Below are positions 12,001-21,000 of a stretch of DNA of 64,000 bases, in pieces. Origin of the DNA: Trichormus sp. ATA11-4-KO1 (GTDB lineage Bacteria; Cyanobacteriota; Cyanobacteriia; Cyanobacteriales; Nostocaceae); assembly GCA_019358915.1 (NCBI GenBank), contig JAHHIM010000010.1, forward strand, positions 1-64,000, in the 5' to 3' direction. Position numbers: made by a program. Every line of letters begins with the position of its first letter. The stretch's first letter is position 1.

Positions 12001-15000
12001 GATTAAATGCAGCATTTATGCTAGAGGTTTTAGGAATAAAAGAAGCATTCCACACAATTGTGTTAGCAGACGATTGTACCGCAGGTAAACCCGACCCTGA
12101 ACCATATCAAGTTGCTTTGAATAACTTGGGAATTAACGCAGAACAAGCGATCGCCTTAGAAGATTCTCCCTCTGGTATTCGGGCAGCCGTCGGTGCTAAT
12201 ATTCGCACTATTGGTATAGCTTCCACCCATGAGCCACAAATATTGCAGCAAATTGGCTCATTGATGGCAATTCCCGATTTTACTGATTTGCAGTTGTGGG
12301 CATTTCTAAATTCTTTGATAGATTCAGATTTAAGTGCGATCGGCAAAGCCGCGCCGTAGGCGATCGCACCTAAATTTGAGTTTAAATCTGGCAGCAATCT
12401 CAATGACTGTGTGCAGACAGGGAGCATCCCTATTTTTTTCCAAAACCCAACACACAGCCTTCATTATACCAAACTTAAAGAAGGAAGAAGTCTTCTTCCT
12501 TCTGACTTGAAAGTGCTGAGTGCGCTTGTCCTGAGCGAAGTCGAAGGGGAGTACTGAGTGCTGAGTAAAAATTCCAGTCTCTAGCTTCTAGTCTCTCTTT
12601 CATACTTGGCTGTGAAACTCGTTTCATCGGAACTTCCCTCTGACTTCGTTAAAGTATTGAGCTTCACAAATTCAAAGGAGCGTAGATATCCTCAGAATGG
12701 GGATTGAGGTAAGGACGTTGTAATTCAATTTGCTGCTTCGAGAAATGTTGCAGAATTGCTGTCATCCGACTTTCTGGTGTATCGTTATCTTGATGCCAAA
12801 CCTCAAGCAAAGCATTGGCAATAATTTGACAGCGATTCAGACCAAAACTTTCTCGGTCAGTAAATTTGCTATTTGGTTCTTCAGCCAGAGCTAAACCTGG
12901 TGCTAGCAATTTGGTAAACAAAGGTACTGATTCGCCAAAATGGGATTGATTTTCTGTATACACCCTTTCTAATACTGGGTGAACAGTTTCATAGTTGTGT
13001 TTGTCAAAATAAAGTACTGCGGAGTCGCAACGTCCATAATCTGAGGGATTATATAATGCTTTAAATGTGAAGGGAATTGATAGAGCGTTGAGTTGAGTGG
13101 TTAAACTGTCCATGACAGCAACTGACCCATCTGGGGTTAAATTAAAGTAAATACGCACTATCTCCTGGTCACCATGAGCGGCTGCATCACCAATTGCCAT
13201 ATAAAATCCACTCTGCACCACATTTTTGGGCATTTTGATCGCCACTAAATCACCAACATTCACAGCTTGGTCTTCTGGTTGTAAGTGAACTTCGCGCTCA
13301 ATGTGCAATGTCAAGCCATTCTTATGCACTGCTAAAGCGCCATCTGTTTCTTCTTTCACCACTAGCCAATCGTAGCTCAAGTAGCCTTTACCTCTGTTGC
13401 TGTTATGCAAGCGATCATAAAAAGCTACATCTACGCCCAAAAAGCTGTTATTTTCTAGACTTTGGCTCAATGCTACATCTGTTGTCTCTTCATCTGATAT
13501 GAGAGTATGTTTCAAAGAACCGTTGTAGTAGACTCCATACAAAAAACTACGCAGTTGCAGACCTAAATACTTATTTTGGAGATCCAATGGCAATTTTTTA
13601 AAGCGGGAAATTGCCTGCTCTGACATCTCTAAGGTTTTATAATCTGGATGCTTAATACAATGGTAAGACTCGATTTCAATCTTATAAATAATGTCTTGTA
13701 GTGATGTCTGCAATGGCTCTGGAATACTGGCTAGTTGAGTTTGTAGCGCATCTAATAGTTGCATAAGAGCTTACCTATGAATAAGAGAGTGTAATGGGGA
13801 ATGGGGAGTGGGGAATGGGAAATAGGAAGAGACAAGATTGGCTGAAAGGTGCTTTGTATTTCAGCCAACTTTGCTGCTCTAGTTTTTTAAGCGCGTGATA
13901 ACTTTGTGGGAACTAAATCTGATGTTTCCATACCAAAAATCGTTGGGATGGATGCGTCTGGACGGCATAATAAACTTTTGGCAACCTGGAGCATTGAGAT
14001 ACCAGGATTACCAAAGGTTTTTTCGTGCTGGAGTGTTGCTTGAATTGATTGAATCAAGGCTAGACCACAAAATTGCACTACTCGTTGTAAAAAATCAGGA
14101 CGCTGCTCTAGAATTTCCGGGAATTCAGCTAAATAAGCGGTAACTAGTGCAGAAATCGAAGGACGGAGTGATTGTAGTGGGGTTGTAGCTAGGCGTAAAG
14201 ATTCTTCGATCGCCATTCCTCTACCGACGACTACACTGTATAACCATAATTGCAGGTAGCTGGCAAGCAATGCGCCTAAGTCAATCGCGGGATCTCCCCA
14301 TGAACAGCGTTCCCAGTCAATTAAGCGAATGATGCTTTCGTCTGCGAAAGATCCATTTACATTCACTTCTTCCCAATTTAAGGAAATGAGAATATTGTTT
14401 AGCTTCATGTCATTATGGGTCAAACAGTGGGGAGTGTAAGCACTACCCAACTCTGCGATCGCCTGACCCAAACTGTCATAACGTTGATAAAGAGCAAAGA
14501 ATTTCAACCCATCAGCAGGAACACTACCAAAAATTTCTGGGGTAATTCTATCGATGCGATGATTTAGTTTTGCAGCTTCTTGACTTGATGTATCCTGAGA
14601 ATTTTGCCAGTATTCCCGATACTCAGGACGTTGGATACTGACGCGATGCATTGATGCCAAAGTAGTTCCAACTATTGTGGCAATCTTTGTGGGAAAAACG
14701 TTCTCTTTTGTATAGAAATCCGCTACATCGCGATAGTTACTAAGATAATTGAAAATAATGATGGAGTTTTCAACGTCAAAATGCACTGCTTCTGAAATAG
14801 AAGCGCGCAAATAGCTAATTTCTGGATTTTTTTGCAAAAACTCGTGAATTCGCCATTCTTGCACAAATTCACCGGCAGTTTTTCCTTCTCGATTGTGACG
14901 CTCTTGCTTAACTAGAAGTTGGCGATCGTCAGGTAAGCTGAGTAACAAGTTAAAATTTTTGGCAGGTTTTAGTTCAATCTTGCTCGATAAACGTTCTTCT

Positions 15001-18000: not shown

Positions 18001-21000
18001 GAAAACTCTCAGAATCGTGAAACAATTCAGAACCAGTAGCGTGTAGTTCAGAGAGTGCAATCTTTGCCATATAAGCTCCTCAAGCATTGTTGCTAGTAAA
18101 TAAAACTGGTGAACAATTAAGCTGTGTTTTGCTTAACTGTTACTGCTATTTTTATTTATCAAAAATCAGAAAGTCAAGACTAGAAACCTGGTTAAAAAGA
18201 CATATATGACTGATTTGTGTCTTACTGAAACTGTAGTTTTAGTCTAATGCTTTAGCGATACACGGTTTTTAGAGAGTCTGCCTAAGCTTACGGTACGCTT
18301 TCAATTGCCAGGGATTTCTCAAGTTGATAATTACTACAAAAATCGTGCATTCTCAAGCTAGTTAGATTGAGAATGCACGATACTAAAATATAAATTTAAG
18401 TAGAATTCAGAGCAAATCTAATTCCTCACTAACTCGATTGCGAGTGAGAGAAAGTGTTTCATCAATTTGTGACCTTAAACTAAATAGAAACCCATTTAAA
18501 TTTTGATCAAATGTGTCTACTAAAGATTGTTCATTGATATTGGATGTATTTGGTGATACTATGCTTCCTTGACCGCCTTCTATTATCTTCATTTCTCCAT
18601 TGGTTATTTCATTCAAAGGCTGTTCTTTATTACTTGGATACAAATCAGCAATTTTTATCTTTGCCATGTCATTAACTCCCTAAATACTTACGATGAAATT
18701 TAACTAGCACGACTTTGAATATGATTAAGCTTCAAATCTAAAATCTCTCTTCTATTTTGCAATTTAATTTTAAAAAGTCAATGGTTTCAACCATTTTTAT
18801 AGACAAAATTAAAGGATTTATGTCTTGAAAAGAAATGATTTTTTAGATCGCCCACAGACTAGAAGTCTGGGGCTACACATAGGAGCGATAGCTTCGCTAA
18901 CGCGGAGGTGGCGTAAAGCCCTACGGGCATGGCTGCGCTTAAAGCCATAGCGTGCCGGAGGCTCTTTTCCAATCGCCCGGTGTTTTTGCAAAGGATGTAA
19001 AAAAAATTGTAGGTTGGGTTGAACGCGAAACCCAACCTTGTATCTTATACGGAGAGTATTGTTAGGTAGTGGGTTACGGCTACCCCTAAAGCTCTCTACA
19101 AATTTTCTAGGTGAATAAAATATTGCGATCGCACAGCGAAATTATAATCACTATATATTCTGGCTGACACTGATGCGACCCTATCACCAAATCCCTATCC
19201 TTGAATGCGGTGAACTACTTGTGCCGATTCCTTTAGAATTATTTGCGGTGGAATCTCCCCATCCTTATGAAAAACTTGGTGCGCCTTATGGGGAACATTC
19301 TCCTTATTATCTGCGCCAAAGTGTGGTTGACAATTTAATTCAAGCCCAAAATTATCTGCAACAACTGCATTCTCATTGGTACATCCAAATTTTTGATGCC
19401 TATCGCCCCGTGGCTGTACAACAGTTCATGGTAGATTACAGTTTTTCCCAAGCGTTACAGCAGCAGAAATTGACTGAGGCTGAGTTATCACCAAACCAAC
19501 GCCAAGAGATTTGGGAAGCAGTTTATGAAATTTGGGCTGTACCAAGTTTGGATGAAAAAACTCCGCCGCCGCACAGTACGGGTGCAGCCGTAGATGTGAC
19601 GCTGGTTGATGAGGCTGGGGAAATAGTAAATATGGGTTCGCCGATTGATGAATTGTCAGAGCGATCGCATCCCGATTACTATGCCAATAGTGACCAGCCA
19701 AAAGCACAACAATATCATGCCCATCGTTTGTTGTTATGTGATGTCATGTTAAAAGCTGGGTTTCAACGTAACCCTAGAGAATGGTGGCATTTTTCCTATG
19801 GTGATCAAATGTGGGCTTGGTTACATAATCAAGCCCATCCAGCTAATTCCTTTACAGCACGTTATGGGCGTTTGGTATAGGTGCATGACTACGCATCTTC
19901 TGGATTTAGCTGTCTTAATTCATCGGTAGTGTATGTACCAATGGGACTCCAAACCAGATAGGGAATGAGTAACAGCGCCGCTAATGTAGAAATTGGCAAA
20001 ACGCAGATTGTCAGCACAATGCCTGAAATCAAACCAATTAACCCAATAACTTCCCCGGCTTTGAGACTGCGAAACCTCAACATGAGAGGTATATAGGCAA
20101 TGGTGATTATTTCTACTAGCAAGTAGAAACCCATCAATAACCAAGTGATTAAGCCTCCTGGATTTTTCTGCCAGACAATGTTAGCTGAAGCAGCACCGCA
20201 GATAAAAATCACAGTCCAAATCAATGGGATAAACGGCTCAAAGACTAACCATTGGGGACGACTTAGCTGTGCAAACCACTTCACATCGCGAGGTGTGATG
20301 AAGAAACTACCAATCGCCACTAAAAAAGTTATAGATCCAATTACCATCCAAGAGGGAATCATCATTCAATCCTTGCCCCTGTATTTTGTTAACTTTGACA
20401 TTGCCAGTTTGACAATTGAGGGCATGAGTTAAATCACTCGATGGTTTGAATCTTAAGCATCTTGAGGGTTGAGGCTAATCATCTGTCAAGGTTTCAGATT
20501 GTTTATATCCCCGTTAGGGGAAGAGATTATGTAAAGGGCAGTGGCGTACCCACTCGCCTGGAGATTGGCGTTTACATCCCCGTTAGGGGAAGAGGTTATG
20601 TAAAGCGTGCTGGCAAGTAGGCGCTGAAGTGTTTAAGTTTACATCCCCGTTAGGGGAAGAGATTATGTAAAGAGGCAAATACTGATATGCAAAACGCATG
20701 TCAGGAATGTTTACATCCCCGTTAGGGGAAGAGGTTATGTAAAGGTGTGCCAGGCGATGCCTATAACCGTCGTTCGGAGAGTTTACATCCCCGTTAGGGG
20801 AAGAGGTTATGTAAAGCTGGTTGCTCTATGTTTTTCTTGTTTGTCTATTTGTTTACATCCCCGTTAGGGGAAGAGGTTATGTAAAGAGTTCACGTCTGAA
20901 AGCTTGACTAGGACTGACTTTCAGACCCCCTAATCGACACACCTCTGAAATTTGACAAAAAACTTGCCAAAAATCATCAATTTTGTCGGTTGAAACCCTT

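Follow-up and report, generated by a model that had tools for sequence, protein, structure and literature searches.

Clusters that join short precursor peptides to a phosphotransferase and a HopA1-family protein have already been published as "Family 1A" (Eyles et al. 2021, Chem Sci, PMC8153245). The family is described there as restricted to Cyanobacteria and adjoining a HopA1/phosphotransferase pair, with a conserved double-glycine leader, several non-identical precursors per cluster and no conserved Cys, and in all these respects it resembles the array analysed here. ESI dataset 2 of the same paper lists orthologues of the array peptides, for example in rows for Nodularia and Chrysosporum ovalisporum, and contains the SESFLNEL motif 69 times; the novelty implied in the genome-wide survey's note is therefore withdrawn. 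The array differs from the published description in two respects. The C-terminal regions of Family 1A are characterized as highly variable, without conserved Ser/Thr, whereas the array represents a subset whose tail is strongly conserved and ends in KS[FY]S (in the paper's table, KSFS appears 119 times and KSYS 51 times, the family as counted in the paper comprising 570 peptides). Moreover, the accessory genes here are unlinked from the cluster.

The class V lanthipeptide systems LxmK/LxmY (lexapeptide) and CaoK/CaoY (cacaoidin) likewise combine an APH-fold kinase that binds the leader, as modelled for our array, with a HopA1-like lyase, and the dehydratase roles of the two enzymes are set out in the relevant passages of PMC9486802. 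The R/K/R/Y residues of class V dehydratases are kept in the array's lyase, and LxmK is the nearest solved fold to its kinase. In contrast to these systems, the array peptides are Cys-free, the operon contains no LanD, LanX or LanC, and the kinase score falls well short of the equivalog cut-off for LxmK. Since neither (methyl)lanthionine nor AviMeCys is possible, the products are not lanthipeptides under the definition given in PMC12291118. Judged by their description, the type-B putative class V LanA peptides of Liang et al. (2022, PMC9486802) are cyanobacterial short ORFs adjoining LanK/LanY with similar leaders and diverse cores, as in the array, but they were selected for Cys in the C-terminal region; relatives in two loci (L031 and L042) that end in ..STCG may be of this kind.

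Group II bacteriocin clusters (Wang, Fewer and Sivonen 2011, PMC3140520) comprise a long C39-ABC transporter, HlyD, a SurA-type rotamase, an M16 peptidase, "other modification enzymes" and double-glycine precursors. Many relatives show such an arrangement around the kinase, whereas in the present genome those parts are split from the precursors; the main text of that paper contains neither "kinase" nor "phosphotransferase". Finally, the thioamitide TsaC/TsaD pair also consists of a phosphotransferase and a HopA1-like protein with a proposed role in Ser/Thr dehydration of a ribosomal peptide, but it is actinobacterial, accompanied by many further tailoring enzymes and associated with Cys chemistry.

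Organization of the locus

We analysed the first 64,000 nucleotides of contig JAHHIM010000010.1 of Trichormus sp. ATA11-4-KO1 (the window). HopA1, the APH kinase and eight co-oriented small peptide ORFs follow one another as the survey's note had reported, and all lie on the minus strand (Table 1); the Pfam matches that the note gave for the two enzymes were reproduced. Its further statements that none of the eight peptides contains Cys and that none reaches the cut-off of a Pfam or NCBIfam family also held. The two additional copies that it placed elsewhere in the genome lie at C3:36037-36267 and C65:141314-141541, each solitary and in an unrelated context, and, in line with its account, no copy was found near the second kinase/HopA1 pair on contig C55.

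The array has a tandem repeat period of 403-435 nt, with the intergenic DNA conserved as well. Promoter-like elements within it form a repeat family (D7) of five copies; a consensus scan gave 25 sites versus 17.6 +/- 4.7 in shuffles, and the sites are pattern matches alone. The terminator-like hairpin possibly marks the end of the operon.

Table 1. Features of the peptide array and adjoining enzyme genes in the window
Feature	Position	Strand	Details
Terminator-like hairpin	12479..12503	-	11-pair stem, weak T tract; ~160 nt past the HopA1 stop codon; pattern match alone
HopA1-family protein, LanY-like phospho-Ser/Thr lyase candidate	12664..13764	-	366 aa; PF17914 208.7 bits
APH-fold kinase, LanK-like	13887..15065	-	392 aa; PF01636 38.4 bits
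Subtype-3 peptide gene	15177..15461	-	94 aa
Subtype-2 peptide gene	15741..15977	-	78 aa
Subtype-1 peptide gene	16117..16380	-	87 aa
Subtype-1 peptide gene	16552..16809	-	85 aa
Subtype-1 peptide gene	16987..17238	-	83 aa
Subtype-1 peptide gene	17400..17645	-	81 aa
Subtype-1 peptide gene	17819..18070	-	83 aa
Subtype-0 peptide gene, first of array	18407..18667	-	86 aa
Promoter-like elements, TTAACA-like, 16/18 nt, AATAAT	16021..17751	-	One before each subtype-1 and subtype-2 gene
Promoter-like element positions	16050-16021, 16485-16456, 16914-16885, 17333-17304, 17751-17724	-	Pattern match

Peptide subtypes and their conservation

Sequence comparison divided the eight genes among four conserved subtypes, whose order is fixed. 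The survey's view of one set of double-glycine precursors stands for the Cys-free array itself but not for its uniformity, and of the six close paralogues that it named, five belong together (subtype 1; 73-76% mutual identity, E 1e-44 to 2e-50), while the sixth, at 59% identity, is a distinct conserved subtype (subtype 2). The two outlier peptides (subtypes 0 and 3) each represent a further conserved subtype.

Subtype-1 peptides open with an invariant 36-residue leader ending in SISGG. Next comes a hypervariable stretch of G/A/T/Y/V/Q, and the tail after it is conserved (..TLTKLAEAFV..Y.I.HVT.LAKSFS). Both conserved parts are under purifying selection among the five close paralogues (mean dN/dS: leader 0.04/0.64, tail 0.106/0.72). 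Subtype 2, found once per array in loci L018-L029 and always in the penultimate position, lacks GG where it normally stands; a ..VVGG motif occurs later, directly before the conserved domain, and the tail (..AKSYS) continues into a Tyr/Pro/Arg-rich end. Subtype 3 is a single copy that always adjoins the kinase. Its N-terminus resembles a leader, it carries a ...HGG motif, and its C-terminal part is aromatic and hydrophobic and ends in ..LAQSF. Its orthologues occupy the equivalent position in relatives, among them L018 (1762-2025), L020 (8603-8866) and L022 (8605-8889), and phmmer returned 98 matches in 39 loci, other subtypes included. Subtype 0 combines a leader-like N-terminus (..IIEGG) with a polar C-terminal part, lacks the KSFS tail and shares 22% identity with subtype 1. 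With phmmer, one homologue each was detected in 24 of the 43 related loci, invariably co-oriented with the kinase and, where subtype-1 genes are visible, 5' of them; lacking the conserved tail, it may be of a different kind from the other precursors.

The conservation of the family goes far beyond what chance would give: besides the selection on the paralogues, a profile of six peptides matched 556 proteins at E<=0.001. Among 120 listed matches, every organism name was cyanobacterial, mostly Nodularia, Anabaena and Nostoc, and many matches were nameless; one database source labels a homologue "Bacteriocin". The literature searched contained no characterization of a family member. Across 59 diverse peptides, K58, K77, S78 and S80 do not vary, and conservation of H71 is at least 90%. 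The KS[FY]S motif is present in 150 of 186 peptides upstream of the kinase in related loci, 176 of which are Cys-free, and KSFS is succeeded by a short stretch of 2-8 variable residues. The leader itself holds seven invariant Ser, so that modification of the core only is an assumption. A weak structure model of the peptide (pLDDT 61.6) predicted helices at residues 6-30 and 53-80.

Kinase and HopA1-family proteins

Homology of the pair to class V LanK/LanY is supported by several comparisons. The kinase matched NCBIfam NF038156 (LxmK) with E 7e-24 and a score of 84.5 bits, which lies below the 315 bits required of an equivalog, and its residues K53, H217, D219, K221, N224 and D250 do not vary among 44 sequences. 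For the kinase model (pLDDT 81.3), the best Foldseek matches were the LxmK chains 9dk3_A, 9dk2_A and 9dk1_A (E 7e-13, target TM 0.78), with methylthioribose kinases scoring nearly equally in fold. The HopA1 protein matched the LxmY chain 9dk1_B (E 6e-6), and R204, K235, R245 and Y252 are shared by all 44 homologues compared, with a spacing close to that of the CaoY catalytic set reported in PMC9486802 (R187/K219/R229/Y236). The catalytic Lys is missing from a second HopA1 paralogue, which is near-universal.

Linkage between peptides and enzymes

Across 43 cyanobacterial loci (kinase identity 54-99%), HopA1 lies directly 3' of the kinase without exception, and family peptides accompany the pair in 40 (1-10 per locus). 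All 186 ORFs are upstream on the kinase strand, extending the survey's observation in relatives. The remaining loci are L028, L030 and L032, of which L030 has just 1.1 kb of upstream sequence. Within 151 Nostocaceae genomes, 93 of the 94 with peptides have at least two HopA1 matches, compared with 14 of the 57 without peptides, 42 of which have exactly one.

In a complex model of kinase and peptide, ipSAE reached 0.82, compared with 0.00 for the best of three controls. Of 157 solved complexes, 116 attained this mark, as did 2 of 215 mismatched pairs; these counts hold only roughly here because our own alignments were used. The modelled interface places peptide residues 9-31, in the leader, on kinase residues 188-199, 279-301 and 352-378 of the C-lobe, with a peptide pLDDT of 47 and runs agreeing in at least 36% of contacts; the model is silent on the residues that enter the active site. 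No peptide is present in the solved LxmKY entries, which are either apo or ATP-bound. Taken together, synteny, co-occurrence across genomes and the complex model indicate that the array peptides are very probably substrates of the adjoining pair. The survey's proposal that they feed a LanK/LanY pair is thus upheld in homology and linkage, if with a kinase below the family cut-off.

Proposed pathway and alternatives

We favour, as the probable reading, a cyanobacterial Family 1A HopA1-associated RiPP cluster reduced to its core of precursors and a two-enzyme Ser/Thr dehydratase, with products exported in trans. The peptide would be made with a roughly 36-residue helical leader, whose residues ~9-31 (..LHAAGSELFQDSESFLNELSDVD..) are modelled to dock onto the LanK-like kinase at its C-terminal lobe. 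The kinase would phosphorylate Ser/Thr of the peptide, the best candidate sites being the near-invariant K-S-[F/Y]-S that closes the conserved tail, together with conserved Thr residues, and the HopA1/LanY-like partner would eliminate the phosphate to leave dehydroalanine or dehydrobutyrine. As Cys is absent, no thioether ring would form, and the predicted products are dehydrated, ring-free and exported. The core of a RiPP is normally its variable part; the conserved tail of the array peptides is unusual for a RiPP core and counts against this pathway.

The leader would be cleaved at the double glycine, with export through a cNMP-C39-ABC transporter, HlyD and a PpiC-type rotamase, and an M16 peptidase pair may make a second cut. 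Among relatives' loci with at least 8 kb of upstream sequence, 20 of 28 carry the M16 pair; among those with at least 7 kb downstream, the rotamase, HlyD and ABC genes occur in 26, 23 and 22 of 36. About one third of relatives have no transporter and M16 genes within 7-9 kb. In the present genome, the M16 pair and the C39-ABC/HlyD/rotamase orthologues (79-93% identity) are on contig C73, from which they would act in trans. They are candidates for the export and cleavage machinery that the survey had left as a gap, albeit unlinked to the cluster. The roles of the transporter and M16 genes are assigned through guilt by association.

Whatever the modification, the role of the peptides might not be antibiotic, and secreted matrix or signalling peptides are conceivable, if rather doubtful. 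A precedent is given by EbfG1-4 of S. elongatus, which, in the accounts of PMC4997328 and PMC12267927, carry GG secretion motifs, are required for biofilm development and are linked to PteB with its C39 peptidase domain. Consistent with such a role, the peptide family occurs in 93 of 150 other Nostocaceae genomes (52 of 68 genera) at a conserved chromosomal site, the core operon shows no evident immunity gene, and the tail is rich in V/I/Y/T. The likeness to EbfG is, however, one of description with no sequence comparison behind it, and hypervariability combined with many paralogues per genome would also be expected from diversifying antagonism.

It appears unlikely that the final modification is something other than plain dehydration. 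Dehydro residues of KS[FY]S might react with K58, K77 or H71 to give lysinoalanine- or histidinoalanine-type cross-links, or might trigger backbone cleavage that removes the variable C-terminal tail; alternatively, the peptides might stay phosphorylated. Such cross-links are found in other peptides, as is cleavage at dehydroalanine, and the conserved Lys, His and Ser positions without a Cys nucleophile, the 2-8 variable residues after KSFS and a tail whose strong conservation suggests a defined structure and not a free linear peptide would fit. Against this, no further conserved core-operon enzyme could direct such a reaction, and the invariant Lys may be a kinase recognition element or a functional residue of the mature peptide; with its full catalytic set, the lyase makes a purely phosphorylated end product unlikely. 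Ordinary unmodified, class II bacteriocin-like double-glycine peptides, with kinase and HopA1 serving another purpose such as immunity or regulation, are highly improbable: the GG leader and ~45-residue core with its weakly predicted helices, the "Bacteriocin" label, the two orphan copies far from enzyme genes and the presence in every Nostocaceae genome of a HopA1 pair without adjoining peptides would suit them, but the strict gene order, the tracking of peptides with an additional HopA1 copy, the leader-kinase docking and the lack of any Pfam bacteriocin match at E<=0.1 speak against them.

To the published account of Family 1A, the present analysis adds four ordered peptide subtypes, a near-invariant K-S-[F/Y]-S motif, accessory genes placed on contig C73 and a HopA1 paralogue that lacks the catalytic Lys.

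Organization of the peptide array

The HAD hydrolase and M15 dipeptidase genes bound a block that contains only eight small peptide genes, an APH/LanK-like kinase gene and a HopA1/LanY-like gene, all located on the minus strand. The genome-wide survey's note had described eight Cys-free small genes preceding a kinase and a HopA1 gene, and this layout was borne out by the coordinates, the Pfam matches and the translations. Its reading of the locus, as a RiPP cluster in which Cys-free precursors are combined with a kinase/lyase pair, also proved correct, and the locus is real and coherent. 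Cysteine was absent from all eight window peptides, none of which scored above any Pfam or NCBIfam family cut-off or matched a Pfam bacteriocin or GG-leader model at E ≤ 0.1. The genes form a tandem repeat array with a period of 403-435 nt, in which the intergenic DNA is also conserved and five of the peptide genes are preceded by a promoter-like element (a pattern match only). The differences among the five close paralogues are mainly synonymous (mean dN/dS of 0.04/0.64 in the leader and 0.106/0.72 in the tail), which points to old, translated genes under purifying selection. A chance-ORF reading of the eight ORFs was rejected on the basis of these dN/dS values and of the family homologues recovered in the profile search. 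Two more copies of the family, each solitary, were found on contigs C3 and C65 of the same genome.

Coordinates of the peptide cluster, its boundary genes and the accessory genes on a second contig (C73) of the same genome; the eight peptide ORFs (78-94 aa) are listed in transcription order
Feature	Contig	Position	Strand	Length and Pfam match	Remark
Subtype 0 peptide	C10	18407-18667	-		first in order; leader-like start, polar C-terminal part
Subtype 1 peptide	C10	17819-18070	-		subtype of five genes here, following subtype 0; up to eight copies seen in other loci
Subtype 1 peptide	C10	17400-17645	-		
Subtype 1 peptide	C10	16987-17238	-		
Subtype 1 peptide	C10	16552-16809	-		
Subtype 1 peptide	C10	16117-16380	-		
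Subtype 2 peptide	C10	15741-15977	-		single gene; ends ..AKSYS + Tyr/Pro/Arg-rich tail
Subtype 3 peptide	C10	15177-15461	-		single gene adjoining the kinase; aromatic, hydrophobic C-terminal part, end ..LAQSF
Kinase	C10	13887-15065	-	392 aa; PF01636, 38.4 bits	
HopA1-family protein	C10	12664-13764	-	366 aa; PF17914, 208.7 bits	
HAD hydrolase	C10	11670-12359	opposite to cluster		bounds the block
M15 dipeptidase	C10	19173-19880			other boundary; TspO gene also there
Rotamase	C73	234602-235378			
HlyD	C73	235710-237254			
cNMP-binding/C39/ABC protein	C73	237492-240515			
TetR	C73	308125-308736			
Two M16 peptidases	C73	309089-312248			

The peptide genes accompany the kinase/HopA1 pair

A scan with the kinase as query recovered 43 cyanobacterial loci at 54-99% identity, while 14 distant non-cyanobacterial hits were set aside; the kinase gene was followed by a HopA1 gene in all 43. 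When a peptide profile built from 120 family members was run on these loci, 186 peptide ORFs were identified in 40 of them, every one upstream of the kinase and on the same strand, and none elsewhere in the loci. A family peptide was not found in L028 (Pleurocapsa), L030 (Stenomitos; 1.1 kb of upstream sequence only) or L032 (Okeania), whose kinases each share ~55% identity with the query. The same association was observed at the level of whole genomes. Among 151 genomes of the window's taxonomic family, 94 carry the peptides and 150 carry HopA1; at least two HopA1 matches were present in 93 of the 94 peptide-bearing genomes, and the 57 peptide-less genomes possessed exactly one match in 42 cases, two or more in 14 and none in one. 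Since related genomes are not independent, this co-occurrence is to be read as a pattern and not as a statistic.

Four peptide subtypes and a conserved C-terminal motif

The eight genes represent four conserved subtypes, which recur in the same order across related loci. Subtype 0 was found as one homologue per locus in 24 of the 43 loci. Subtype 1 starts with an invariant 36-residue leader (..SISGG). The G/A/T/Y/V/Q stretch that comes next is hypervariable and has indels; it leads into a conserved tail (..TLTKLAEAFV..Y.I.HVT.LAKSFS), which is followed by 2-8 variable residues. A GG lies near position 31-36 in seven of the eight window peptides; subtype 2 is without it at the usual place and carries it later, with ..VVGG immediately preceding the conserved domain. 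Alignment of 59 diverse members revealed that G35 is invariant and G36 is conserved in at least 90%, and that the sole invariant residues beyond the leader are K58, K77, S78 and S80. The corresponding KS[FY]S motif occurs in 150 of the 186 peptides encoded beside kinase homologues, and KSFN in 11 further ones. Cys-free sequences make up 118 of the 120 listed homologues and 176 of the 186 upstream peptides in relatives. The predicted fold of the peptide alone is of low confidence (pLDDT 61.6) and serves as a hint only; it suggests two helices, at residues 6-30 and 53-80, joined by a disordered hypervariable linker.

Liang et al. 2022 (PMC9486802) describe cyanobacterial "type-B" putative class V precursors that were selected for Cys. 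In two Nostoc relatives, peptides encoded at 378-620 of locus L031 and 7639-7899 of locus L042 keep the ..AKSFS tail and end in ..STCG; a C-terminal Thr-Cys was seen in no other member. These two may be the Cys-bearing "type-B" peptides and could potentially form rings.

Comparison of the kinase and HopA1 proteins with class V enzymes

Compared with the NCBIfam model NF038156 (LxmK), the kinase aligned over model positions 27-344 of 347 with an E value of 7e-24 and scored 84.5 bits, where the equivalog cut-off is 315; by this comparison, it is a homologue of the class V lanthipeptide kinase LxmK and not an equivalog. A fold search with its predicted structure (pLDDT 81.3) returned three LxmK chains as the top three matches (E about 7e-13, TM 0.78 on target), with methylthioribose kinases a close second. 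Across 44 homologues, the catalytic-loop residues H217, D219, K221 and N224 do not vary, nor do K53 and D250. The HopA1 protein matched the lyase LxmY (chain 9dk1_B; entry 9DK1 is LxmKY, PMC12141560) with an E value of 6e-6, and its R204, K235, R245 and Y252, which are spaced by 31, 10 and 7 residues, are likewise invariant in 44 homologues. This spacing is close to that of R187, K219, R229 and Y236 in CaoY (32, 10 and 7 residues), an enzyme whose elimination activity is described as almost or completely lost on mutation of R187 or K219, and whose R229Q variant supports only inefficient dehydration (PMC9486802). Given the homology to LxmK and LxmY, the fold match and the invariant catalytic residues, the pair can credibly be regarded as a class V-type Ser/Thr dehydratase.

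Class V lanthipeptide systems employ a stand-alone LanK (PF01636) and a LanY (PF17914, with Arg/Lys/Arg/Tyr), and homologues of both are found here. However, these systems also have Cys in the precursor core for (Me)Lan or AviMeCys formation, which the window peptides lack, and none of their partners, LanX and LanD in class Va or LanC in class Vb, is encoded in the window operon. LanC-like Pfam models matched nothing in the genome, a weak negative since they were silent in the control genomes too. NF038157 and NF038155, leader-motif models of other lanthipeptide classes, had no match here or in the controls and are uninformative. With no LanD, LanX or LanC in the operon and with Cys-free substrates, the products necessarily fall outside the definition of lanthipeptides given in PMC12291118.

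Modelled docking of the leader on the kinase

Complex prediction for the kinase and the peptide, in which purpose-built alignments of 44 and 59 rows were used as input, gave an interface score (ipSAE) of 0.82, while the best of three controls scored 0.00. Of 157 solved complexes 116 attain that mark, as do 2 of 215 mismatched pairs; within the model, the partner pLDDT is 47 and the contacts agree between runs in at least 36%. In the confidently predicted interface, peptide residues 9-31, which belong to the leader, would contact kinase residues 188-199, 279-301 and 352-378. This modelled interface agrees with the proposal, made for class V systems, that the leader binds the kinase via hydrophobic contacts (PMC9486802). 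None of the solved LxmKY entries, which are either apo or bound to nucleotide, contains a peptide, and the docking result, although still a model, is therefore unlikely to reflect memory of a solved peptide complex.

Candidate protease and transporter genes reside on another contig

The genome-wide survey's note had left a gap at the transporter and at leader cleavage, for which candidate C39-ABC/HlyD/rotamase and M16 genes were found on contig C73. In relatives, a divergent TetR gene and two M16 peptidase genes are located upstream of the cluster on the same strand (the M16 pair in 20 of 28 loci having at least 8 kb of upstream sequence), and genes for a PpiC-type rotamase, HlyD, an ABC transporter of ~1016 aa and an HTH protein are located downstream on the opposite strand (rotamase in 26, HlyD in 23 and ABC in 22 of the 36 loci with at least 7 kb of downstream sequence). 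The layout around the kinase in relatives is that of the group II bacteriocin clusters described by Wang et al. 2011 (PMC3140520), in which a long C39-ABC, HlyD, a SurA-type rotamase and M16 occur with the precursors. In contrast, these genes are unlinked from the peptides here: rotamase, HlyD, C39-ABC and M16 genes were all absent from the 64-kb window. The accessory genes on C73 are 79-93% identical to those of a Nodularia relative, and no family peptide gene lies beside them.

The C73 genes form two blocks ~66 kb apart, one with rotamase/HlyD/C39-ABC/HTH (234602-241135) and the other with PhzF/DUF4332/TetR/M16/M16 (305701-312248). After the second M16 gene, at the place of the peptides in the layout of the relatives, there is a Uma2-family gene, and another Uma2-family gene is found near the window cluster (21272-21874). 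The cluster is split into three pieces in this genome. We rejected an assembly artefact as the origin of the split, as all three pieces are internal to contigs and L017, the locus of a 96-97% identical relative, shares the arrangement on the HopA1 side. We infer that the C73 genes serve the C10 peptides in trans.

A second HopA1 paralogue and other genes of the window

A second kinase/HopA1 pair is located on contig C55 (locus L078; HopA1 at 6580-7668 and kinase at 7730-8968, both on the minus strand); identity to the window pair is 49% and 51%. Its HopA1 protein carries Gln at the position of the catalytic Lys (K235). Ten further paralogue-like loci from other genomes were examined; nine of the ten have Gln or Glu at this position, and none of these nine has a leader-type peptide within about 3.5 kb. 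In the tenth, L088, the Lys is retained and two short ORFs with a leader are located nearby, so that it represents a third type. HopA1 was present in 149 of the 150 other genomes of the family, and the paralogue type of the single copy in one-copy, peptide-less genomes was checked in five of these genomes. The second pair type is widespread and, from its residues, possibly lyase-dead.

Elsewhere in the window, a type III CRISPR-Cas effector set (25065-33348, plus strand) consists of a Cas10/Cmr2 palm-domain protein of 803 aa and then five RAMP-family genes. Two overlapping small-gene pairs, at 22033-22673 (minus strand; 116 aa/97 aa) and 23402-24075 (plus strand; 81 aa/143 aa), give the impression of toxin-antitoxin modules by size and layout only. 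A CBS/PAS histidine kinase with a receiver domain (758-3850, plus strand; 1030 aa) and an RDD and pentapeptide-repeat protein (5221-7368, plus strand; 715 aa), both encoded downstream of the cluster, appear unrelated to it. Among sequencing runs, one DNA run may be where this DNA came from. In one metatranscriptome (run X2), 9% of sampled words were shared and the contigs were mostly 90-99% like the stretch, with word depths of about 100-290 over the subtype 1 genes (about 16.1-18.1 kb); the kinase is covered by a single piece, at depth 8. The contigs derive from an RNA library of a relative, genes cannot be ranked by their depth, and DNA may have been carried over; the coverage is taken as a lead only and not counted as evidence of expression.

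Relation to a published peptide family

Family 1A of Eyles et al. 2021 (PMC8153245), obtained by HopA1 protein mining, is described there as 570 peptides from 183 clusters, exclusive to cyanobacteria, with a conserved double-glycine leader, several non-identical precursors per cluster and variable C-terminal regions without conserved Ser, Thr or Cys. Short cyanobacterial peptides upstream of and co-linear with a HopA1/phosphotransferase pair, as in Family 1A, were found here and in 40 of the 43 related loci, and the window array shows the same double-glycine leaders and multiple non-identical precursors. ESI dataset 2 of that study contains SESFLNEL 69 times and "Nodularia" 76 times, as well as rows nearly identical to peptides of the related loci L018 and L022, all of which are labelled network 1. 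By sequence, the window peptides belong to peptide network 1. The same table contains KSFS 119 times and KSYS 51 times, and the window type is therefore the conserved-tail subset of Family 1A, a point not made in PMC8153245. None of the papers covered by our literature search reports the characterisation of a product from these cyanobacterial clusters.

The locus adds one more example to a family that is published and still uncharacterised, and is not a discovery in itself. The details that this analysis adds are the division into four ordered subtypes, the KS[FY]S motif, a modelled interface for the leader (residues 9-31) and the dispersed accessory genes with their presumed action in trans, as well as the near-universal HopA1 paralogue without the catalytic Lys.

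Proposed maturation and alternative readings

In the reading that we favour, and consider moderately probable as a whole, the leader would dock on the kinase as modelled, Ser/Thr residues would be phosphorylated, and elimination of the phosphate would yield Dha/Dhb. The leader would then be cut at the GG and the peptide exported by the C73 transporter set; a second cut by the M16 pair may follow. What the data show directly is the homology, the conserved residues, the synteny and the co-occurrence; the docking is a model, and the modified sites, the elimination step, the export route and the role are inferences. A non-antibiotic role, whatever the chemistry, is a possibility of minor weight, for which the GG-motif biofilm proteins EbfG of S. 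elongatus may serve as an analogy. It is rather unlikely that further chemistry follows, in which the dehydro residues would react with an invariant Lys or His, the tail would be lost, or the phosphopeptide itself would be the end product. We consider doubtful a more far-reaching combination, in which the KS[FY]S subfamily would be a distinct class of Cys-free RiPPs. Here LanK/LanY would make dehydroalanine at the invariant K-S-x-S, leading either to a non-thioether cross-link with the invariant Lys/His or to shedding of the variable C-terminal tail; the product would present its hypervariable N-terminal stretch on a conserved helical module, and the four fixed-order subtypes would work jointly as a secreted system of several components (matrix or antagonism), not as independent bacteriocins. 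That these are unmodified GG-leader peptides beside unrelated enzymes is very improbable, as synteny, co-occurrence and the docking model all speak against it.

Family peptides are present in 93 of the 150 other sampled genomes of the window's family. The kinase/HopA1 dehydratase is best known from actinobacterial lanthipeptide and thioamitide antibiotics, and the precursors described here are unable to form thioether rings. How such enzymes act on a Cys-free, tail-conserved peptide is a known gap in RiPP chemistry; closing it would also tell which role, that of weapon, signal or matrix component, these abundant peptides play in cyanobacteria.
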